DNA from: a virus
Taxonomy: Duplodnaviria; Heunggongvirae; Uroviricota; Caudoviricetes
DNA: 12,626 nt
Virus record (IMG/VR): IMGVR_UViG_2695420456_000020
Direction: 5' to 3' (one strand)
Shown here: piece by piece, positions 867 to 12,479 of the stretch
Position numbering within the stretch: position 1 is the first letter of the stretch
Layout: each line of letters opens with the position of its first letter
Program-made: the position numbers and the translations under genes
The notes under the pieces: model-generated
What the model was told of the DNA's origin: nothing
Databases searched by the model: none
Seen by the model: only the letters and a program-made list of their open reading frames with translations

Positions 867-1340
867 TTAGTGATGTTTTGGCTGCACCGCAACATACATT
901 TCGATATCCCAGTACCCATCTTCCGCGCCATTGTTCAAATAAACCTCGAAGCAGGGCTTTGGTAACATTTCATAAGCACTGTCCTGCAAGAGACTATTAA
1001 AGAACTGATACCAGGGTTTAGCAAAATCATCACCGACTACACGAGCTACCGCCACCGCATACTGACCACCTGTAATTTCTGTCAGAATGACGCCCTCACT
1101 GTTTTCGGGAAGCGTAAAGTAACCCGGCACCGTCACGACGGTGTCGCAGCGTAATTTTTCGGCGGGTGTTTCATCTGGATTGTCGTAATAGACAGCAACC
1201 CACTCCTTCGGCACAATATTTTTGCTATCTACCCACATCATCAACTGCTCAAAGCCTTTCTTTACCGTCTGTTCCCACGGGCCAACGAGATGGAAACCTG
1301 CAACGGTACGTTTCTCTTCCTGCTTAATCTCGTAGTTCAT
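867..1340 (-). CDS. sbmC: DNA gyrase inhibitor SbmC/GyrI (157 aa)
   Basis: ATG at 1338-1340 preceded by GGAGG (4 nt spacer); stop at 867-869. Translation [30 protein letters not shown]... matches E. coli SbmC as I recall it. Confidence 0.93.
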
Positions 1341-1458: not shown

Positions 1459-2625
1459 TCAGGCCTTATGGTGGAAATAATCACTCAGGCGAGAAAACAT
1501 GCTGCCTTCCCCGACAGATTCCAGGGTAACCAGCGGCCAGTGCGCCACCTGTTTATCACGGTCGTAAAGTTCAATTTCCCCTACCCGCTGATGGGCGCTA
1601 ATTGGCGCGGTGAGTTCTTTACCATCAAGGGTATATTTGGCTTTGATATGTGGAATTTCGGCTTTCGGTAGCACCATCCAGAACTCTTGTTCCGTTCCCA
1701 GGTCGATATTTTCTTTATCGCCATACCAGATGCGTTCCGTTCCGACCTTTTTCCCACGGTGCAAAATTTGCACCGTAGTAAAGTTTTGTTGCCCCCAACG
1801 CAGTAATTTTCTTGCCTCTTCCTCACGACCTTTTGCACTGTCAGCCCCCATTACCACTGCAATGAGACGACGCTGCCCATCTACAGCCGAAGCAATGAGA
1901 TTAAACCCGGCACCAGAAGTATGACCCGTTTTCAGGCCGTCAACATTCATGGTTTTATCCCACAACAACCCGTTACGGTTTTGCTGGGTGATACCGTTCC
2001 AGGTGAGACTTTTCTCACTGTACATATGATAAAACTCGGGCTCGCCGTGGATGATAGCACGAGAAAGCACAGCTAAATCATAAGCCGAGCTATGCTGGCC
2101 AGGTGCATCCAGACCATGCACTGTTTCAAAATGCGTATCCTTGAGATGCAGCTTCTCGGCATAGTTGTTCATCATTTCAACAAACTGCCGTTGCCCACCG
2201 GCAATATAGTCAGCCAGAGCAACACAAGCGTCATTTCCGGAATCCACAATTAAACCACGGCTTAAATCACGTACCGATACGCGATCGCCCTCTTTCAAAA
2301 ACATCAGTGAAGAACCGACAAACACCGGATTATCTTTCGCCCACGCATCGCGCCCCACGGTGACAATATCGTCTGGCGTAATGCGATGACTATCGATAGC
2401 GCGATCCACGACATAACCCGTCATCAGCTTTGTCAGGCTGGCGGGATTGCGCTGTTGATGCTCATTACCCGCGGTGAGGATCTGACCGGTGGTGTAATCC
2501 ATCAATACCCAGGACCCGGCATGAATCTCTGGAGGCTGAGGTGAAAAAGGAATGTTTTCCGCCGCAAAACCAGACGATAAGTTAAAAACGAACAAAGAAG
2601 CAGCAATAATAAGACGGCGTTTCAA
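1459..2625 (-). CDS. dacD: D-alanyl-D-alanine carboxypeptidase DacD (PBP6b), 388 aa
   Basis: Translation contains a signal peptide (KRRLIIAASLFVFNLSSGFA) and the SxxK (SLTK), SGN and KTG motifs of class-C PBPs. Likely TTG start at 2623-2625 (giving the MKRRLII N-terminus) with a GAGG-type SD 8 nt upstream; the six-frame track extends to a second TTG at 2631. Confidence 0.93.
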   Translation of the reverse strand: MKRRLIIAASLFVFNLSSGFAAENIPFSPQPPEIHAGSWVLMDYTTGQILTAGNEHQQRNPASLTKLMTGYVVDRAIDSHRITPDDIVTVGRDAWAKDNPVFVGSSLMFLKEGDRVSVRDLSRGLIVDSGNDACVALADYIAGGQRQFVEMMNNYAEKLHLKDTHFETVHGLDAPGQHSSAYDLAVLSRAIIHGEPEFYHMYSEKSLTWNGITQQNRNGLLWDKTMNVDGLKTGHTSGAGFNLIASAVDGQRRLIAVVMGADSAKGREEEARKLLRWGQQNFTTVQILHRGKKVGTERIWYGDKENIDLGTEQEFWMVLPKAEIPHIKAKYTLDGKELTAPISAHQRVGEIELYDRDKQVAHWPLVTLESVGEGSMFSRLSDYFHHKA

Positions 2626-2833
2626 CAGCAAACCCTCAGGAGTTTCAAATAGCTGTTCTTTTTACGGAAATACTTATGAACTGGCTGGAATAAAGTGCAA
2701 GAAAATGTGACTACCCTCTCATTTTTATCTGACATGATCTGTTGCCACTCGCTGCCAAATTGTGGCGCTAAAGCTGATTAGCACGGTGATATTTGATACT
2801 CTGGCAGACAGCAGAAATAACGGATTTAACCTA

Positions 2834-2896
2834 ATGATGAATGACGGTAAGCAACAATCTACCTTTTTGTTTCACGATTACGCGCAACACCCCTGA
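2834..2896 (+). pseudogene. sbcB: 5' fragment of exonuclease I gene sbcB (first 16 codons MMNDGKQQSTFLFHDY), then a foreign junction and stop after 4 more codons
   Basis: ATGATGAATGACGGTAAGCAACAATCTACCTTTTTGTTTCACGATTAC encodes the ExoI N-terminus as I recall it (MMNDGKQQSTFLFHDYETFG...). From about 2883 the frame reads AQHP then TGA (2894-2896) and unrelated prophage sequence follows. Confidence 0.8.
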
Positions 2897-3251
2897 GAAC
2901 CGCCATGAACAAGGGTTTCATGATTTGTGATTTTAGTTTGGTACGCAATTTGGTACACAACACAATTTTCACTTCAGCGGGTAGTCATCAAACTCACCAT
3001 AACGAGCATCGTTAATGATGTATGTGATCACCACAAATATCACATCTGGACTAGTTCCGTCTTCATGCGCAGGTATCTGTTCACGCCTCCCTTTCTGCAA
3101 ATCCTAAAGATGAGATTTTGGGGTTTTGGGATATCTTTTTATCCTCAGTTCTCTATCAATTCTACAAAGCAGTAATGAACCATCACTATGTGATAGTGAG
3201 GCATCCGCTACATTAAGCGCAGAGAAATGATGCAGTGGTGGGCAGACTGGC

Positions 3252-3279
3252 TTGATGAAAAGGTGGAGTGATCCACCTT
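3252..3279 (-). terminator. Rho-independent terminator downstream of the tailspike gene
   Basis: Inverted repeat aaggtgga (3260-3267) / tccacctt (3272-3279) with loop gtga; on the minus strand the stem is followed by a T-rich tract (ttttcatc). Confidence 0.55.
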
Positions 3280-3422
3280 AACCACTATCGAAGAGCACAA
3301 AGCCTTGCAATCCAGTGCAAAGCTTTGTGTGTCTCAGTTTTGTCTCATCAACCACCGCAAGTCATCGATCGATTGACACTTGGATGATAGACTTCATGCT
3401 TTTTATGGCTAATTTCTGAATT

Positions 3423-5654
3423 TTAAATGGAAATCCTTGCGCTTATATACGCGCTATTTCTTATTTCAGGCTGCTTATTGGATGGATTTAAATTCATAGA
3501 TACACCATTTGTTCCAGTAATTATATTAAGTGTTCCTGATGACAAATCTATTGATGTAGCGGTGATTCCCACAGACTCAGTTGGAGATATATATGCTACA
3601 TTCAATTGTTCAGAACCTGTTATTTTTGAGCGTTCATTAGATATAAAAAAATCCACCTTAGCCCCACTTGTTTCACTTCCATTTTTCTTCAAATTGAACG
3701 TTGACTTGTAAATATTTCCTCTGTATACCTGCCTTCTATATTGACCATTTATTGACACTGGTTGATTGAAATTTGTCATATCAGAAATTGGGTACGTTTC
3801 ATACATATGCGCCCCTTGCGTGCCTATAAATGTTTGGTTAAATCTACCATGAGAGCCTGATACAACTATCATGTCATATCCTTCAATCCACCCTTCTTTG
3901 TGATTTATTGCATATCTAGGAATATCTCCAAAGAAAGCATTTCCATTAATATGGATTGATGACGCCTTATCAATGCTGGAAGGTTCAGGGGTGATTAGTA
4001 TCAACGAAATAACTGAAGATGATACGTCAGGTGTTGCACCACATGTTCTAGAGATATTGTTATCACTTACCTTAGCACTACCATTTTTCCAAACTGATAT
4101 CACCGAACACCCTGAAGAAAATTCATTATCAGAATATATCTCAACTATATTATCACTACATACAACAGATCGCCAACCAGCAACAACAACACCTTGAACA
4201 AATGTTCCAGATGAAGGCGATGTTAGAAAGAATTTATTTCCTATTATTGTTACATCATCATGAGGAAACTTCGTTCCAGTATAATTACCATTAGTCCCAA
4301 ACCATGCACCAATCCTAGCATAACCTCTTATAATATTATTACTAAAAGAAATACCAATAAGTTTTTCGTTATTCCCAAGACAATAAAGATTAACACCTCT
4401 TGAATTTATATTATTTGTTAGTATTTGATTGTTATTTATGCTCAAATTGATAATGGTAGCTGTTGTTGAGTTACAACCAATAACTGATGAGTCTTGAAAA
4501 TATGCCCCATCAAGTATGTTATCAGAAATAATAATATTTCTATATACTCCCCCAGCATGTCCTATTTCAATTTGCAAATTTGAGCTTTTGTTTTGAAGTT
4601 TATTTCCGCTAATAATTATATTTGTGCTAGGTGTGCCATCAACTTTAATTCCAAGTATTGCGTTTGGTTGAGCGGAATCAATCTGTATATCACAATTCCA
4701 CGTAATATGGTCCACCTCCATATCACACGACCCGTGACAGTCTTTGACTGTTACATCGGTTGATCCTGCAATATCAACAAAATGTTGATCATGTCTCCCT
4801 TGCTCCACTCTCTCTATAGTTACATTTTTGCTATGACCTAAACCGATTAAATCACCATAATCCCTTGTTGGGGTTGCGCTACCGTCAGTGATTGTAAAAT
4901 CTCTAAAAACAATATTGCCGGCAGCTCCATAGCCAGTTCTAGTATCATAATATTTATTTGTTATCAAGACACCATCCATCCCCCTCTCAGTGGGTAGTCT
5001 CTGAATGATGGTAGATCCAGCACCAGCCCCACAGAAAGTTACGTTAGCGGGAACTCTAATGCATGAATAATTATGACCTGATTTTTCAATGCTGACGTAA
5101 TATTTACCTGGAGGAAGATAAATAATCCCACCACCTAGAGACTCAAGATAGTCCAATGCAGAGTTAATTGCTATTGTTGAATCATTTGACTTTCCAGATT
5201 CACCAAACATTTGTGGTGTAACTACAATAAAAGAATCAATCAACTGCTGAATTGTTAGTCCAGACGAAGTACCAACATGCCCCGCACCATAATTTGACTC
5301 TATTATTGTTCTAAACTGATCAGGGTCATACTTCAGCACATTAGGAAAATAGAACTGCTGCGCACCGTATGCATCATAAACAGCCATTGAATGGCCTTGC
5401 ACAGTTACGAACTTGGCAATCTGTCCGTTATATACAGGATACCCGCCAGAGTTAATGATGATTGGCTGTGCAACAGGAACGTGAGAGCCGTCTTCGTTCT
5501 CCACATAAACCTGAATCTGGTTTTCAGGGTTTACCGGGTCAGTGTCAATTTTACCGATATAAATTTTGCCATTAGCTACGGCTTTAAAAGAACGCGCCAT
5601 AGTGAAGAGTTGCGAAGGCATCCCAATTACAACATTTGGAGTTATATCAGGCAT
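3423..5654 (-). CDS. Tailspike protein (743 aa): P22-gp9-like head-binding N-domain fused to a pectate-lyase-like right-handed beta-helix receptor-binding domain
   Basis: Start ATG at 5652-5654 with AGGA 8 nt upstream. N-terminus [43 protein letters not shown]...[10 protein letters not shown] aligns with the P22 tailspike head-binding domain ([43 protein letters not shown]...). After about residue 113 the sequence has a pectate-lyase-3-type start ([30 protein letters not shown]) and repeated N/D-x-I beta-helix rungs. The track ORF begins at an upstream TTG (5807), which I treat as non-coding. Confidence 0.9.
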
Positions 5655-6065
5655 ATTAGTCATCCTGTTTGAAAATTTAGATATTGAAGAAAACGGAATG
5701 ACTGCAGACAAAGATGCAATTGTTTTGAAAAATAATCTTCTATTCACTTTAAAACCATGCAATATGAACAAAATAATTATTTTACAACAGACAAGAATCT
5801 TGATCAACAGACATATGCTTTATGCGTTTAATGCGTCACTTAAAAATAACAAGTACTACTTTTATTCCTATCGTCCATGATTTTCATTTTCAAATATTAT
5901 TAAATAACAATTCCTATTTATAATATCTGTCATTTAATTTGCTCCAGATACAAGGAATCGCCGCAGCATGGCTACGGTTGGTATTTGTTTGGTTTTTGAA
6001 CTACGAAAATTTCGTAGTGCTATCCATCAAGGCCATCGCCGCTTAGTTGCTGCGGTGAATTTTGG

Positions 6066-6110: not shown

Positions 6111-7046
6111 TCAGTAGTTATGTACTGAAGGAGGTAATTCTTTATTCTTAAGTCTCATCCATGCGGAAAGATTCGTTGGTCCGTCTGGCTCATTGATATC
6201 AACATCTCGTGTGTGATTGATTAAAACGTCTCTCGCCATATCGATAATACGGGAGAACTCATAACCGCAGTCATGACATCTTCCTGAATAGTTCGATTGA
6301 ATTTGTTTCAGCGCCGGATACAGTTCGCGGAATAATGCCTGTGAGCGGTTGGCATAATCCCATAACCATACAAGGCTGTTTGCTTCTTTTGCAGAAAGCT
6401 CGTTTGCTTTCTTCTCTTGTTTGCCGATGAACTCACCTTCAAGTGGAACTCGAGCTGCAAGTGACAGTGCTTCGGTAAACTGCTCCTCACTGATTTCTTT
6501 GTACGAACATCCAAAATGGGATTTAAGTGACGACCACATGGTGATCATCGCCTTAGCCTGTTTTTCTTTTGGCAGATACTGACCGCGACTCATGACGAGT
6601 TGTTTAATGGCTTCCTGCTGTTCAGTGGTGATTTTACCCGGCAACGCTTTTTTAGCTTTGCGTGGGTTAACTACATGGCCTTTAGTCCAGTAGTCATGCA
6701 GCACGCTAAAGCATTCCTCCTGGTACTGAATCAGTTTATCGCGGATGTCAGCTCGAACTTTCTCAGGGTTGATGCTGAACAGCCATCCATTTAACTTCTT
6801 CAAAGGAAGGCAGAGTAGCTTACGAAGCTTCCCATCAGCGGCAACCATATTCATATGAATACAGTTGAACTTATCTAGTTGTTTCATAAGTTTTTGTTGC
6901 TGAGTACCCCAACTCATTCCAAGGTTTTCAACGATTGGCTTCATCGCAACGTATGCAACTCCGGCAGCCATGGCGGTGATAATTTGCTGACCGTTGAATG
7001 GTACGTAAGAGGTGTTCACTGCTTCTAAAATTGCTATACTATTCAT
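6111..7046 (-). CDS. ant: Antirepressor Ant (311 aa), P22 Ant-like
   Basis: ATG at 7044-7046 with GGAG 10 nt upstream. Translation [43 protein letters not shown]... matches P22 antirepressor as recalled, and the gene sits immediately downstream of arc. The track ORF extends upstream to 7112, which I treat as non-coding. Confidence 0.88.
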
Positions 7047-7115
7047 GTTGGTTTTTCTCCACGGATTTACTGACAACCGAAGCCCTGACTGTTCCCGCAG
7101 TTGGGGCTTCAACTT
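7047..7115 (+). ncRNA. sar: Candidate sar-like antisense RNA (antisense to the ant ribosome-binding site and arc-ant spacer); ends approximate
   Basis: P22 makes a ~69-nt antisense RNA from a promoter inside the 5' end of ant, reading toward arc. Here a plus-strand -10-like TATACT (7035-7040) lies just inside ant, and a stem gaagccc (7079-7085) / gggcttc (7104-7110) lies in the arc-ant spacer. Inferred from position only; the 3' T-tract is weak. Confidence 0.35.
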
Positions 7116-7276
7116 TACGCGCCAATGCGCCCTTCCTTCTTAAAGCTTTCCATTACTCTCTGATAAATCTCAGAGTTAACAGACCGACCATTCTCTTCCG
7201 CCACCTTGCGTACCAAATCCAATACTTCTTTAGGCCACCGCAAATTGAACTGCGGCATCTTGCTCATTCCTTTCAT
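7115..7276 (-). CDS. arc: Arc repressor (53 aa, ribbon-helix-helix)
   Basis: Translation [53 protein letters not shown] is near-identical to P22 Arc as recalled. ATG at 7274-7276 with GAGGTG 3 nt upstream; stop at 7115-7117. Confidence 0.95.
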
Positions 7277-7290
7277 ATTCACCTCACAAT

Positions 7291-7311
7291 ATAGGTCCAC
7301 CGTGGACCTAT
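7291..7311. promoter_or_regulatory. Mnt operator (Omnt): perfect palindrome ataggtccaccgtggacctat
   Basis: Perfect 10-bp arms around a central C, identical to the P22 mnt operator core (AGGTCCACGGTGGACCT on the other strand), lying between the Pant -10 and the arc start. Confidence 0.9.
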
Positions 7312-7339
7312 TGAGAATATAGTAGAGTGCTTCTATCAT
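7311..7339 (+). promoter_or_regulatory. Candidate Pmnt promoter (-35 TTGAGA 7311-7316, 17-bp spacer, -10 TATCAT 7334-7339), overlapping and divergent from Pant
   Basis: Hexamers with correct spacing read directly from the plus strand, 28 bp upstream of the mnt ATG; P22 has overlapping divergent Pant/Pmnt promoters. Confidence 0.6.
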
Positions 7340-7344
7340 GTCAA
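7316..7344 (-). promoter_or_regulatory. Pant promoter (-35 TTGACA, 17-bp spacer, -10 TATATT on the minus strand) with the Arc operator (7319-7339) embedded in the spacer
   Basis: Minus strand reads TTGACA (rc of 7339-7344), 17 bp, TATATT (rc of 7316-7321). The sequence between them, ATGATAGAAGCACTCTACTAT (rc of 7319-7339), equals the P22 arc operator as recalled. Confidence 0.85.
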
Positions 7345-7366: not shown

Positions 7367-7621
7367 ATGGCTAGAGATGATCCGCACTTTAACTTCCGTA
7401 TGCCTATGGAAGTAAGGGAGAAATTAAAATTCAGGGCGGAGGCGAATGGGAGATCAATGAACTCCGAGTTGTTACAAATCGTCCAAGATGCTCTATCAAA
7501 ACCATCGCCTGTGACTGGCTATCGCGACGAAGCTGAACGCTTGGCTGATCAGCAGGCAGAGCAGTTCAAGACTGTTGTGTTTGAGACACTTAAAAAGATT
7601 TATGGCAAGGATGATAAATAA
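7367..7621 (+). CDS. mnt: Mnt repressor (84 aa, ribbon-helix-helix; maintenance of ant repression)
   Basis: Translation MARDDPHFNFRMPMEVREKLKFRAEANGRSMNSELLQIVQDALSKPSPVTGYR... matches P22 Mnt as recalled. ATG at 7367 with GGAG 7 nt upstream; stop TAA at 7619-7621. Confidence 0.95.
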   Translation: MARDDPHFNFRMPMEVREKLKFRAEANGRSMNSELLQIVQDALSKPSPVTGYRDEAERLADQQAEQFKTVVFETLKKIYGKDDK

Positions 7622-8157
7622 TGCTGCACACAATTCATTTCTTATGCCCCGTTAACACCGCCACTGTTGGGCAACTTCAGAACCACTGTCTCACCGCATT
7701 ATCTCAAGGCGCAACTGAATTAAATATCCATATATCAAGTCAGGGAGGGGAAACTGCCGCTGGTTTTACTGCGTATAACTTTCTTAAGTCACTCCCTGTT
7801 ACCGTTAGAACTCACAACATAAGCAATGTTGAATCCATAGCTAATATCGTTTTCCTGGCTGGCTCAGAACGTTTCGCAAACCCATTATCAAGATTCCTGT
7901 TACATCCTCTATTATGGGGCTTTGCCACCCCAGCCGCCGACCATGCCAGATTGAGAGAGTACGGGAAATGCCTCGATAACGATCTTGATCGCTTCGTTGA
8001 GACGTTCAATATCGACATCGGAACCCATATTAGGTGGGCATCCCTGATAGCAGACTCGACCATTTTGGATGCTAACAAGGCTCTTGAGCATGGCATAATT
8101 AATTCCATAAAAACTGCAAGGCTGGTATCCAATCAGGCAAACTGGTGGGTTGTTTGA
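7621..8157 (+). CDS. Compact ClpP-fold (S14-like) serine peptidase, 178 aa, translationally coupled to mnt
   Basis: ATG at 7621-7623 overlaps the mnt stop (TAATG). The translation aligns by eye with ClpP: ISSQGGETAAG vs INSPGGSVTAG, Ser72 in NVESIAN vs GQAASMG, His95 in RFLLHPL vs RVMIHQP, Asp150 in ADSTILDANKALEHGIINSI. It lacks the ClpP N-terminal region. Confidence 0.75.
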   Translation: MLHTIHFLCPVNTATVGQLQNHCLTALSQGATELNIHISSQGGETAAGFTAYNFLKSLPVTVRTHNISNVESIANIVFLAGSERFANPLSRFLLHPLLWGFATPAADHARLREYGKCLDNDLDRFVETFNIDIGTHIRWASLIADSTILDANKALEHGIINSIKTARLVSNQANWWVV

Positions 8158-8234: not shown

Positions 8235-8420
8235 TTAACAGCCTCCGCGTCCACGAGTAATTCTGTCGCGGATTTGCTTCTTACGGTGGTTTAGGCTTGA
8301 TAGCTTGGCTTCTGCTTCTGATATTTGCGCATCTAGATCTTTAAGCTCAAGATCTGAAAGTCGCTGGTCAAGCAGGGTTTGATTCAACTCAATGTTGTTC
8401 AGGCGTTCTTCTATGGTCAT
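8235..8420 (-). CDS. Small coiled-coil protein (61 aa), function unknown
   Basis: ATG at 8418-8420 with AGGAG 5 nt upstream. Translation MTIEERLNNIELNQTLLDQRLSDLELKDLDAQISEAEAKLSSLNHRKKQIRDRITRGRGGC has heptad-like leucine spacing. No homolog recognised. Confidence 0.5.
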   Translation of the reverse strand: MTIEERLNNIELNQTLLDQRLSDLELKDLDAQISEAEAKLSSLNHRKKQIRDRITRGRGGC

Positions 8421-8561
8421 GATTACTCCTTGTTGAGGTTGATGTGAAACGATTGATTGTATACGCACTCTTTTGTTAGCTAGTAGCTTTGCTTAATCGC
8501 AAGATAAAGTTTCTGATTAATCCCTAAAAATCAAAAAATAAAGTTAAAACAGGTACATGAT

Positions 8562-8765
8562 ATGGAATGGATCATAGGATTTGTTGTTCTTATCTTCATA
8601 GCCAGTATGTTTAAACCAAGAAGTTGCGATATCTGTGGTGCTGGATTTAAGAAAAAGTACTTCACATGGACTATCGATGGAAAGAAACAGCATCTTTGTC
8701 CGTACTGCAACAGTAAAATGGAGAGACGCAACAGCGATAGGCGCTTTAAGGATCGATTTGGTTAA
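8562..8765 (+). CDS. Small membrane-anchored zinc-ribbon protein (67 aa), function unknown
   Basis: N-terminal hydrophobic helix (EWIIGFVVLIFIASMF) followed by CDIC...CPYC (two CxxC pairs 21 residues apart). AT-rich with rare codons (ata, aga, agg, cga). Followed by a terminator. An antisense ORF (8544-8792) has no comparable features. Confidence 0.55.
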   Translation: MEWIIGFVVLIFIASMFKPRSCDICGAGFKKKYFTWTIDGKKQHLCPYCNSKMERRNSDRRFKDRFG

Positions 8766-8780
8766 CCATTTTATCTCCAA

Positions 8781-8814
8781 CAAAAAACCCACCTGACGGT
8801 GGGTTTCATTTCTT
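8781..8814. terminator. Bidirectional rho-independent terminator between the convergent zinc-ribbon and lipoprotein genes
   Basis: Stem cccacc (8788-8793) / ggtggg (8798-8803), loop tgac, flanked by AAAAAA (8782-8787) and TTTCATTTCTT (8804-8814), so a T-tract follows the hairpin on either strand. Confidence 0.75.
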
Positions 8815-9232
8815 AATCTTGCTTTGTAGACGGTATAAGGGATGCGTTTGCCTCTTTTGGCTTCAAGGTATACATCCCACCATTAAATGGATCAACAGCA
8901 AGCCAACCAATTAACCCACCAAACACAAGGTTTCCACCAATATACCAACCATTAGCATTGGCTTTGATTGGCAGGGTAACTGGTTCGTACCCATCCTTTT
9001 CCATAGTGATCTGGTAACTCTTTTTGCCAAAATAACTACCATCTGACTTGGCAAGAGTTACTCCTTGTGGGGTCTTACCTTGCGCAACAATCACGCCTGA
9101 TTCGTCTTTTACCTTAAAGCTCGCACCGGAAGGATTGCTGTTCACTTGCACAAGCTGTGTTTCGTCACCAACAATAGTTGCGCACCCAGATAACATGATA
9201 GCGCCAGCAACGACGCCAATAATCCTCTTCAT
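8813..9232 (-). CDS. PEGA-domain lipoprotein (139 aa)
   Basis: MKRIIGVVAGAIMLSGC signal peptide with lipobox LSGC (Ala at +2). PEGA-like motif VQVNSNPSGASFKVKDESGVIVAQGKTPQGVTLAKSDG ... MEKDGYEPV. Start taken at ATG 9230-9232 (weak GGAA SD); the track ORF begins 4 codons upstream. A candidate sigma70 promoter (TTCACA-17-TAGGAT, minus strand, 9263-9291) precedes it. Confidence 0.72.
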   Translation of the reverse strand: MKRIIGVVAGAIMLSGCATIVGDETQLVQVNSNPSGASFKVKDESGVIVAQGKTPQGVTLAKSDGSYFGKKSYQITMEKDGYEPVTLPIKANANGWYIGGNLVFGGLIGWLAVDPFNGGMYTLKPKEANASLIPSTKQD

Positions 9233-9327
9233 ATCAATTTCCATATCTAAAAAACCGGAAACATCCTAATGACAAACTATTCAAATGTGAAGCACGAGAT
9301 AAGATCAATCCATCCGTGGACGACTAA

Positions 9328-11496
9328 TTACTCCTGTGTCATTCCGCTTAGCGATGCCACAATCCCAGCCCTCGACAAACGCTGGAACTCTTCGTTTCCT
9401 AGTGCATCGCGAATTGCTTTTACGGCGGCCTTATTTGCCATAAATCTGCGTTCCGCCGCCGCTAATGCGCCATCACTTGCCCCAACCTTAACTGCCTTTG
9501 TTGCCTCTTGAACAGCCTTTTCAATAGCGTAACGACCACTTCTGGTTGCGGATAATTTCGCTATCGATCCTTTTGCTATCGCATCAATTGCTCCACCAGC
9601 AGCGCCACCCACTATTGCTCCAATAACACCTCCTCCAGAGAACCCTGCGATAGCGCCAGCGGTTGGAAAAGCGCCAGACAATACGCTCTCTAAAACTGGA
9701 TGAAGGCCATTCTCAAGAGTGCTAATGGCTGGCATAGAGCGCCCTGTTTGTTCAACATATCGAAGTGGCTTTGTTGCAGCTCTTGCAAGTTCTCCGTATG
9801 AACTTGTAATCCTGCCAAGTTCTGGAGAATATCGACTAATTGCCTTCACGTTTTGTGGGGTAAGAATAGTCGCGATATGCTTAATTCCAGCTCCTTCAGA
9901 CTTACCTCCGCGTACCCCTTGCGATACCGCATCTTGTAATATTGATGCAATTGCTGGCGCGCGTTCCGATTCAGGTAGGGCGCTTATTATTTTATGGAAC
10001 TGACCTGTTCCACTTTTTGCTGAACCCTGTAACGCCTTAGATCCATTAGTTACCAACTGATCAGTTGCAAGGTCTCTACCAAACGCTGCTTCAGCCTGTT
10101 CTTGTGCTGTAAATCTTGCCTTTGACAGATCATTAGCTTTTTGCCAGTCATCAAGAAAACCGCCATTTTGAGCCATTATGCGCATATCTTCCGTTGCTGC
10201 ATCACGAAGCTCAGCCATGCGCCTTGCCGTATTTGCCTCACCAGACCTTATATACTTCTGCTCTGCGTCAGCAAGTTTACTTCGCCATGCCTTCATGGCA
10301 TCAAACGTGATTCCTTTTTTACCAGTTTTAGCATAAGCAGATGCGAATTGTTTCATCTCAGGAGTTAGCGGCATGCCAGCCAAAATATCACCCTGAATTG
10401 TAGCGTTCAGGTTTGACATTCTGGCCTTTGCGTCAGGCATCGTGGAGCGGACGCTATCCCATGCGGCCTTTTCTGAATTTTTCATTTTATCAATACTTGC
10501 CAAAACCCTTTGTTTTATGGCTGCACTTTTTTCTGATGCAGTTCCTGCTTCAGCCCCAAACTCATCCAATGCTGAGTTAAATTTCGACTCTATTTCACTG
10601 AATGCTTTGGTGTGTGCATCCTGTGTAATTCCGGGCTTTGACGCCAGAATCCCCTCCGCCTGAGCAAGACCACGACTACCTGATCTCATGCCAGGAGTTA
10701 ATGCGTTGATATCTATTCCAGCAGTATCTGCTGCTTTTGCTATTTCGTCTGACACATTAGCTGACTGTCTGGCAATAATCTCTCTTCCTGTACCAGACTT
10801 TGCCATTTTCGAAACATCAGCAGCGGAATTTATTGCCCCGCCACCAAGAACTTGAGGTGATTTAGAGGTTAAGATCCTTCCAGCCCCAGAAAGTATCCCC
10901 TGAGCACCAATATTGATACCACCATTAATGGCAGCATTTTGTGCAAAATCGCCCTCCTGATTTGCAGCATCAGCAAGAGAACCTGCAATCATGTTTCCTG
11001 CGGAACCGATGTCTCCTGCGAGCTTTGCTGTCGCTCCAGCAGCTTTTGCCGCTGTGCCAATTGGCAGGAGATACCCCCCAAATGTTTCACCGGCTTGCGC
11101 CCAAGGGTCTGTCGGTCGATCGACAGGGCGATAAACATCATCCAAAACCTTGGGGCCACCAAGCCCCTGGCTGATTGCATTAATCAGACTTGCGCCACCC
11201 TGCAATACGTCAAATGGTATATTTACCAGACCACGACCAGCCTGTTCTGCAATTTGCCCTGCACTTTGACCACCTGTGAGCCAATCACCAGCTTGTTGCA
11301 TCAATGATGGTTCTTCTTTCTGCTGCTGAGGCGGAGGGTATGCTGCATAAAACTGATCTCTTGCTTCAGCCCATTTGTCACCAGCCTTAGGGGCAACAAC
11401 CTCATCAAAATATTGCGCTTGAGCCTGTGCTTTCTGTTCTTCAGTTAACGCCTGATACTGTGGAGAGGCGATAACATCTTTCCATGCTTTAGCCAT
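9328..11496 (-). CDS. Putative DNA-ejection (internal virion) protein, 722 aa, Ala/Gly/Gln-rich; P22 gp16-position
   Basis: Long ORF whose start overlaps the upstream stop (TAATG at 11494-11498). Composition is low-complexity A/G/Q/E/K-rich with a glycine-zipper segment ([31 protein letters not shown]). Function inferred from position relative to immI/tailspike; no direct homology recalled. Confidence 0.65.
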
Positions 11497-12479
11497 TAAT
11501 CACCCCATAAAGACGAGAAACCGGACTCATTGCTGTCGCTTCCTGATTTTCGCTCACTAACATATGTGTCATAACCTGATGAACTATATCCCATTGATTC
11601 AGCCTCCCTTGCTGCAACCTTTTGAAATACATAATATTGCGATCGGATTTCAGATAACTGTTTTCTGACGACCTCTTCAGGCTGTGTTATATCGAGTTTC
11701 GCGATCAGGTTTTCCAGTTTTTGTCCTTCAGCATTGGAGAGACTACCCATACCTCGCATAGTCTGCACGTTCTGGACAAACGCACCAGACTTTAATTCTT
11801 CTATCGCATTACGGTTTGCAATCCCTTCAGCACTTGTGAAGCCATCTATATTTCTTCCTTCGAAGCGACCGATACCTTCAAGCTCCTTCTTACCAAGCAA
11901 AGAATCAATTTTCTCTATCCCTCGCTCACCAGTAATCAACGCATTGTTGTAATTATTGTTGCCATCAAGCCATCTCTTAGCCTGAGACATTCTGGCTGAC
12001 GTTGCAGCTTTACCGGTTAGAGGATCAATTCCTGTCGCTGCTATCTGTGAGTTAAGAGACAAAACATCCATATCCTGAAGTTGTCCTGCTCTTTCAATGG
12101 CCGCCTGTGACTGCTTAAACACATACTTGTCGTGATTCAGTCTTGCCATTTGAGCCTTATAGGAAAGATCCTGCCCCCTAATAGCCCTCGCATTCGTCAT
12201 GTCATTATTGCGAATGGTTTCGTTAATTCTTTGCTGCTCCTGCTGGCGACCAACCATCTTATCCTGAACAGCAAACGCCTTTTCTGGCCCAAGCGCACCG
12301 AGAGACATAGTAGTCAGCATGTGTGATAGCTGCTCTGGATTCTGGATACCTGTCTGAATCATCCAGTCAGCATTCGCACCCACACGATTTAACCTGTCCT
12401 TGTTGTCAGTAATGAATTTACTGTAGGCTTCCGGCCCCTGAGAAAGAGCGACGTTAGCCCTCATGGCTAAATCGCCCAT
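11496..12479 (-). CDS. Putative DNA-ejection protein, 327 aa; P22 gp20-position
   Basis: ORF tightly coupled to the downstream 722-aa gene; Q/N/R-rich, coiled-coil-like. ATG at 12477-12479 has no clear SD (alternative ATG at 12462-12464). An in-frame stop at 12552-12554 excludes a longer N-terminus. Confidence 0.6.

Follow-up and report, generated by a model that had tools for sequence, protein, structure and literature searches.

The window analyzed here, a 12,626-nucleotide stretch of DNA (IMG/VR virus record IMGVR_UViG_2695420456_000020), is the junction of an Escherichia coli chromosome with the right end of a P22-like prophage, and it carries a gene for a short ClpP-type serine peptidase of 178 amino acids (7621-8157, plus strand) that overlaps the 3' end of the immunity repressor gene mnt. 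By sequence and modeled fold, the product belongs with ClpP1 of Pseudomonas plecoglossicida (PpClpP1), the type of a ClpP sub-family that is short and truncated at the N terminus. The gene itself, judged by the settings of its relatives, is an accessory gene (a "moron") carried by temperate phages in Enterobacterales. With moderate confidence, we propose that it provides the lysogen with an accessory ClpP subunit that would join the Clp machinery of the host and shift the output of ClpXP or ClpAP.

An earlier note on this DNA, made from the letters alone, had described a ClpP-fold serine peptidase gene at these coordinates and of this length, and both the description and the coordinates are correct. 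The protein matches Pfam PF00574 (ClpP/peptidase S14) over residues 24-165 with 46.7 bits (E = 4.3e-12) against a gathering threshold of 20.2. An AlphaFold monomer model built on 31 homologues has a predicted local distance difference test (pLDDT) score of 93.3 and superposes in Foldseek on ClpP structures with template modeling (TM) scores of 0.82 to 0.94. The ClpPs of E. coli, S. aureus and Listeria fall at 0.82-0.85, and the closest structure is 9UXT (TM 0.94, root-mean-square deviation 1.6 Å), which is the ClpP1 of P. plecoglossicida (PLoS Pathog 2026, PMC12900304). A profile of the family run against the PDB likewise returned 9UXT at E = 1.3e-50 and the canonical ClpPs at about 1e-13, and the window protein is 40% identical to 9UXT over its full length, while viral ClpP-like proteins are more distant (at most 24% identity). 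The sub-family comprises 234 clusters at 50% identity when an exhaustive profile search is cut at E ≤ 1e-30. The window protein belongs with PpClpP1 on three features: it resembles PpClpP1 over the full length far more than it resembles canonical ClpP, its N terminus is shortened by more than 15 residues, and its third catalytic position is not Asp. The labels "ATP-dependent Clp protease proteolytic subunit" and "head maturation protease" that such proteins bear in databases are both misleading.

The active site departs in one respect from the Ser-His-Asp triad that had been thought to be retained. Ser72 (codon TCC, 7834-7836) and His95 (codon CAT, 7903-7905) align with the nucleophile Ser97 and the base His122 of E. 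coli ClpP, and neither varies among 31 family members or in any of the 140 sub-family representatives. The proposed third member, Asp150 (codon GAT, 8068-8070, in the motif ILDANK), aligns with ClpP Ser175 and not with the catalytic Asp171. Its column holds Asp in 47 of the 140 representatives and Asn, Ser or Thr in the others, and alignment to both E. coli ClpP and PpClpP1, together with these column statistics, rules it out as a triad residue. The equivalent of Asp171, and of Pro151 in PpClpP1, is Ser146 (8056-8058, plus strand like the other two codons); the Asp of the adjoining ADS motif is Asp145. Across the same representatives this column contains Gly, Ala, Arg, Glu, Pro, Thr or Ser and is never predominantly Asp, leaving a Ser-His pair without the canonical Asp where ClpP/S14 peptidases have a triad. 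The ClpP N-terminal region is indeed missing, as had been noticed: residue 3 aligns with residue 27 of mature E. coli ClpP, and the first ~25 mature residues, which include the pore-gating axial loops and helix A, are absent. Positions of the ClpX/ClpA docking pocket are altered relative to E. coli ClpP (Y60N, Y62H, F82S, I90H, and L114N), and the protein has neither the N-terminal axial loops nor the hydrophobic docking pocket of ClpP.

The upstream gene, mnt (7367-7621, plus strand), encodes a true Mnt repressor of 84 residues with a P22-type N-terminal half (Pfam Arc, 4.9e-30; Repressor_Mnt, 3.5e-12). Its stop codon TAA (7619-7621) and the ATG of the clpP-like gene (7621-7623) have base 7621 in common in a TAATG overlap, a Shine-Dalgarno sequence AAGGA (7607-7611) lies within mnt nine bases 5' of that ATG, and consensus scans between mnt and the clpP-like gene revealed nothing resembling a promoter or terminator. 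The overlap and the signal-free interval uphold the translational coupling that the earlier note had read from the sequence. This mnt is 93% identical in nucleotides to that of P22 up to ~7593, where the similarity to P22 stops; similarity of the phiv205-1 type starts at ~7581, which argues that the last 10-13 codons of mnt move together with the clpP-like gene as one module. The conserved junction module (7581-7623, plus strand) consists of these codons, the Shine-Dalgarno sequence and the TAATG overlap, and the recombination breakpoint falls inside the codons themselves. The stretch from mnt to the clpP-like reading frame is identical in E. coli strain SMN013SH2.

The coupling recurs in other prophages, at 38 loci. 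Among the full-length Mnt sequences that they encode, 12 are distinct, and these represent at least five types by their N-terminal, operator-recognition part. Nearly all loci have in common the junction AAGGATGAnAAATAATGCT, the exceptions being a Pectobacterium-type variant at three loci and a form one base shorter at one. Despite their differing operator specificities, the five or more types have one C-terminal tail (ETLK..Y[GA]KDxK) as well as the same junction. Within E. coli the coupled allele is nearly uniform (~98-100% identity) across many prophages, including those on many IMG/VR contigs, and at 98-100% identity it is found in six deposited phages, phiv205-1, EC.P3, E212, PhiR12_1, PhiR12_4, and PhiR12_5. 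A family member is present in 176 of 5426 complete E. coli genomes (~3%), in every case chromosomally, with none on a plasmid. In 128 of the 5426 the copy is at least 95% identical, and nearly all sampled full-length copies at this level have an annotated "Arc family" gene directly 5'. Among the carriers of these 128 copies of the coupled allele are K1, avian-pathogenic (APEC) and further extraintestinal strains. The coupled form extends to Pectobacterium (79% identity, overlapping) and Providencia (65%, with a 30-nucleotide gap). In the lambda-like siphophages PhiR12_1, PhiR12_4, and PhiR12_5, the whole arc-ant/mnt-clpP cassette (3565-5577 in PhiR12_1) is inserted between the tail genes L and K, which indicates that the immI module moves as a unit into backbones that are not P22-like, and the clpP-like gene is found paired with Ant proteins of different families (P22_AR and Bro-N). 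Copies truncated at the 5' end, starting at residues 56-62, occur in some prophages (three IMG/VR contigs and E. coli 09-00049, H109), and the gene therefore seems to decay in some lineages. The phiv205-1 prophage has been reported to raise biofilm formation and colonization, an effect not attributed to the clpP-like gene.

Apart from the passenger gene, the immI region is complete and P22-like. It contains a Mnt with the Arc domain and tetramerization tail, promoters Pmnt and Pant placed face to face, arc and ant, and a full-length sar. The 53-residue Arc (7115-7276, minus strand) starts at MKGMSK within a longer listed open reading frame (ORF), whose residues 25-74 match Pfam Arc (2.7e-30), and the antirepressor gene ant follows at 6111-7046 on the same strand (Pfam P22_AR_N, 1.6e-44; P22_AR_C, 1.4e-27). 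The antisense RNA sar lies between the two (7047-7114, plus strand; Rfam RF00262, 95.6 bits against a gathering threshold of 43), and its full-length presence there marks the region as complete. A Pmnt-like promoter (7311-7339, plus strand; TTGAGA, 17-nucleotide spacer, TATCAT; 10 of 12 consensus matches) faces and overlaps a Pant-like promoter that would drive arc-ant (7316-7344, minus strand; TTGACA, 17-nucleotide spacer, TATATT; 11 of 12 matches), both placed as in the annotated P22 immI. Pmnt is the immI promoter that stays active in the lysogen. Because the clpP-like gene overlaps mnt and no signal intervenes, its expression from Pmnt in the lysogen, which the earlier note had also deduced, is the parsimonious inference. 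There is a precedent in P22, whose annotation shows a passenger, orf59a, in the mnt operon before the t-mnt terminator, with sieA next on the same strand.

Homologues that stand alone, with 52-74% identity and no ribbon-helix-helix (RHH) gene upstream, occupy at least five other prophage slots, at more than 55 loci. They lie at the junction of Rz/LysC with the terminase genes in Serratia (72%), Klebsiella (58%), and divergent E. coli copies, between N and erf/ssb in Proteus (55%), in a Mu-like tail module in Pantoea (57%), between tail-fiber and lysis genes of a contractile-tailed prophage in Chromobacterium (58%), and beside a tail-fiber invertase remnant in E. coli ST540. The stand-alone copies run antisense to the flanking lytic operons. 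By identity to the window gene, coupled copies (79% and 65%) and stand-alone copies (74%, 72%, and 69%) are interleaved, which suggests that the gene has changed slots repeatedly. Its presence or absence between conserved phage genes, in several unrelated backbones and antisense to lytic operons, is what identifies it as a putative moron. The Klebsiella copy has a promoter-like site upstream (4829-4857, 10 of 12 matches) and a GC-rich terminator just 3' of its stop codon (5739-5756), and so appears to be a self-contained transcription unit; its 238-residue annotation is probably over-extended at the N terminus, with the family start MIHTVHF at ~5157. In E. coli M11957 a co-oriented ORF of 182 codons (3275-3823), without a Pfam match, lies directly 5' of the divergent stand-alone copy at the lysis/terminase junction and may be a partner or a second moron.

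Outside phages, homologues are chromosomal genes of more than 50 Massilia and related Oxalobacteraceae species, 41-46% identical to the window protein and ~80% identical among themselves, in partly conserved synteny. Their neighbors are purine-catabolism (HIUase/allantoinase-type), outer-membrane-protein, and chemoreceptor genes, and no informative partner gene emerged beside the Massilia homologues. Chromosomal homologues are also found in the Pseudomonas putida group, which includes the PpClpP1 clade.

What such a protein may do is suggested by the work on PpClpP1, the shortest characterized ClpP, which is N-terminally truncated by more than 15 residues and forms a homotetradecamer with an axial pore of 42.7 Å (PMC12900304). 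Its "Ser-His-Pro" site needs the Ser and the His but can do without the third residue; the enzyme is a 13-fold less efficient peptidase than its canonical paralogue, shows no binding of ClpX, and alone degrades neither green fluorescent protein (GFP)-ssrA nor casein, an unfolded substrate (PMC12900304). Together with canonical ClpP it forms a stable hybrid tetradecamer with peptidase activity above that of either homomer, and its deletion impairs growth and motility (PMC12900304).

By analogy with this enzyme, we propose the following course for the prophage protein. In the lysogen, where Mnt is made, the gene spliced onto the 3' end of mnt would be read from Pmnt along with mnt, and its translation would be tied to that of mnt by stop/start coupling. 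The product would assemble into ClpP-type heptameric rings devoid of axial gating loops and of a ClpX/ClpA docking pocket, with catalysis by the Ser72-His95 pair without the usual Asp. Such a ring would presumably not attack folded proteins alone, and would instead pair with a host ClpP ring in a hybrid tetradecamer, which ClpX or ClpA of the host could still drive from the side of the host ring, with an altered peptidase output. The tetradecamer, the wide pore, the weak peptidase activity, the lack of ClpX binding and the hybrid with canonical ClpP are properties of the 40%-identical homologue; a hybrid of the phage protein with E. coli ClpP, like any benefit that the lysogen might draw, is inferred. 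The gain to the phage could lie in the exclusion of other phages, in prophage stability, or in altered host physiology. A bolder version, in which a captured gate-less subunit made only in the lysogen turns host ClpP into hybrid ClpXP or ClpAP with a prophage-specific payoff, seems to us unlikely, at perhaps a fifth of our belief. If true, the payoff might be, for example, that Clp-sensitive proteins of a superinfecting phage are destroyed faster or that host regulators turn over differently, and the gene would represent a new class of phage-encoded modifier of the host proteolytic machinery.

Several points weigh against the proposal of an accessory subunit. The promoter scan was by consensus only, and in the stand-alone Serratia and Proteus copies consensus scans for promoters of their own gave nothing above chance. 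The idea of a hybrid ring derives from one publication, which concerns a 40%-identical enzyme encoded on the chromosome of a different genus, and in that paper ClpX-driven degradation by the hybrid was only slightly higher, so that the physiological effect could be small (PMC12900304).

Among the alternatives, the one that survives best, although we think it improbable, is an autonomous superinfection-exclusion or anti-phage effector, a wide-pored, unfoldase-independent peptidase that would destroy a protein of the incoming phage (for example, an ejected or early one) without involving host ClpP. The gene occupies the interval from mnt to gene 16, in which P22 keeps sieA, its other insertion points are classic slots of lysogen-expressed phage genes, and it is always antisense to lytic operons; the near identity of the coupled allele across many E. 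coli prophages also fits. The biochemistry points the other way, as PpClpP1 alone leaves both GFP-ssrA and unfolded casein intact (PMC12900304), and the Massilia and Pseudomonas relatives, chromosomal genes that are passed on vertically and have phenotypes in growth and motility, are not defense-island cargo. The defense-protein models of PADLOC-DB v2 matched neither the ClpP-like protein nor Mnt, a known defense system was rejected on this ground, and literature support for an exclusion role was not found.

The enzymology of PpClpP1 allows another outcome, to which we give about half as much credence. A weakly active, ClpX-blind ring could act as a dominant-negative subunit, poisoning or sequestering host ClpP and lowering Clp proteolysis in the lysogen, as the low peptidase efficiency of PpClpP1 and its failure to bind ClpX might suggest (PMC12900304), together with the changed docking-pocket residues of the window protein. 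In the one case tested, however, the hybrid was more active than either homomer (PMC12900304), and the invariance of Ser and His in all 140 representatives argues for selection on catalysis.

A further reading, which we consider quite unlikely, makes the peptidase a proteolytic partner of the immI switch that removes Ant, Arc or Mnt, for instance by clearing leaky Ant and so stabilizing lysogeny. The gene is predicted to be co-transcribed with mnt, is translationally coupled to it and adjoins arc-ant, and the junction is conserved across five Mnt types. The homologues at 52-74% identity, however, have no Mnt-type RHH gene directly upstream, domains of Arc, Mnt or P22-type Ant are absent among the called neighbors of the stand-alone copies, the mnt-coupled members do not form a separate identity group, and the same gene pairs with Ant of the P22_AR and Bro-N families. 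These stand-alone copies and the chromosomal Massilia and Pseudomonas genes rule out an obligate partnership with Mnt, and the earlier suggestion of a protease functionally wired to an RHH repressor is not supported. Very little likelihood attaches to a type II toxin-antitoxin-like pair in which Mnt, an RHH protein, would be the antitoxin and the peptidase the toxin. The order of the two genes, RHH gene first and the overlapping gene downstream, would suit it, and Mnt has a weak NCBIfam match to a RelB-like antitoxin model (0.0021, below cut-off). The pairing is not obligate, however, given more than 55 loci without an upstream antitoxin and single-copy chromosomal homologues, which speaks against the pair as such; Mnt also keeps its full operator and promoter context, and PpClpP1 was made in and purified from E. 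coli with no toxicity reported (PMC12900304).

A ClpP-type prohead protease scarcely enters into consideration, since the match to PHROG_94 "head maturation protease" (5e-21) and the GenBank annotation in phage phiv205-1 are outweighed by a location outside the head module, as the earlier note had argued, and on the opposite strand, by a score of 49.7 bits against a cut-off of 120 for NCBIfam NF045542 (Clp_rel_HeadMat), by occurrence in phages with at least four unrelated virion modules, and by nearest relatives that are chromosomal ClpP paralogues. P22-type capsids, moreover, mature without a protease, and the phiv205-1 label is an annotation-transfer error.

The remainder of the window is divided between host and prophage. 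The host genes are sbmC (867-1340, minus strand), encoding a GyrI-like protein, and dacD (1459-2631, minus strand; Peptidase_S11). Between dacD and the prophage genes lies the host/prophage junction (2632-3422), in which a tRNA gene was sought and none was found. The first prophage gene beyond it encodes a tailspike with a P22 head-binding domain (3423-5807, minus strand). At the far end are an ORF similar to gene 16 (9328-11496, minus strand), which has no Pfam match and is named by position, and gene 20 (11496-12479, minus strand). The interval that holds sieA in P22 (8235-9244) has three small unrelated genes in its place, namely a coiled-coil ORF (8235-8468, minus strand; PHROG_7586), a 67-residue ORF with a transmembrane segment and a zinc ribbon (8562-8765, plus strand), and a lipoprotein gene (8813-9244, minus strand; PHROG_6823, with a weak PEGA match and a Cor-like signal peptide). 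These are probably further lysogen-expressed accessory genes. The sole terminator-like hairpin of the region (8785-8806) is 3' of the 67-residue ORF. A search for atypical base composition across the region found a flat guanine-plus-cytosine content of ~0.45.

In conclusion, two elements of this arrangement are known already, the PpClpP1-type accessory ClpP as a kind of protein and the mnt operon as a slot for prophage passengers. What appears to be undescribed is this type of ClpP as phage cargo in Enterobacterales and its splice onto the mnt immunity gene. The earlier note recognized no characterized system of this architecture; the protein type does have a solved and assayed member in PpClpP1 (9UXT, PMC12900304), while its deployment in prophages is undescribed in the literature searched, preprints included, which yielded nothing on a prophage role for the short ClpP type. 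Phages are nowhere mentioned in the PpClpP1 paper (PMC12900304), and the present assignment ties a recently solved type of enzyme to mobile elements, which the authors of that paper did not do. Recognition of the gene as a prophage-borne PpClpP1-type short ClpP corrects the annotation and yields the testable idea that lysogens may have their Clp protease readjusted by the prophage. The conserved splice onto the 3' ends of several mnt alleles illustrates how a moron may draw on the promoter and ribosome-binding site of a lysogeny gene. Why temperate phages carry a short ClpP is a question that seems not to have been asked so far.

A comparison with known systems shows both shared and divergent features. 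The ClpP-related head-maturation proteases of phages (PHROG_94, NF045542) have a ClpP fold and a Ser/His motif and give the best PHROG match. Their genes, however, belong to the head module, in many cases as a fusion with a scaffold or capsid protein, whereas the window gene sits in the immunity region, antisense to the late genes, and scores below the NCBIfam cut-off. With orf59a and sieA of P22 it has in common the slot between mnt and gene 16, the strand of mnt, and an expected expression in the lysogen, but the sequences are unrelated, orf59a does not overlap mnt, and sieA encodes a membrane protein and has its own promoter. The accessory ClpP isoforms that enter mixed tetradecamers (P. 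aeruginosa ClpP2, Listeria ClpP1, and Mycobacterium ClpP1P2) likewise stand as a second ClpP beside the canonical one and have an atypical catalytic site or N terminus, and the Listeria ClpP1/2 complex (4RYF) superposes on our model at TM 0.85. They differ in being host-encoded paralogues with only ~22% identity to the window protein, and none of them is known to be phage-borne, nor did literature searches bring up such a case. The closest counterpart is PpClpP1, with 40% identity, a similar length (178 against 183 residues), the same N-terminal truncation, a TM score of 0.94, Ser and His at equivalent positions, and a residue other than Asp at the third. That position is Pro151 in PpClpP1 and Ser146 in the window protein, and while the PpClpP1 gene lies on a chromosome among non-phage genes, the window gene is prophage cargo coupled to mnt.

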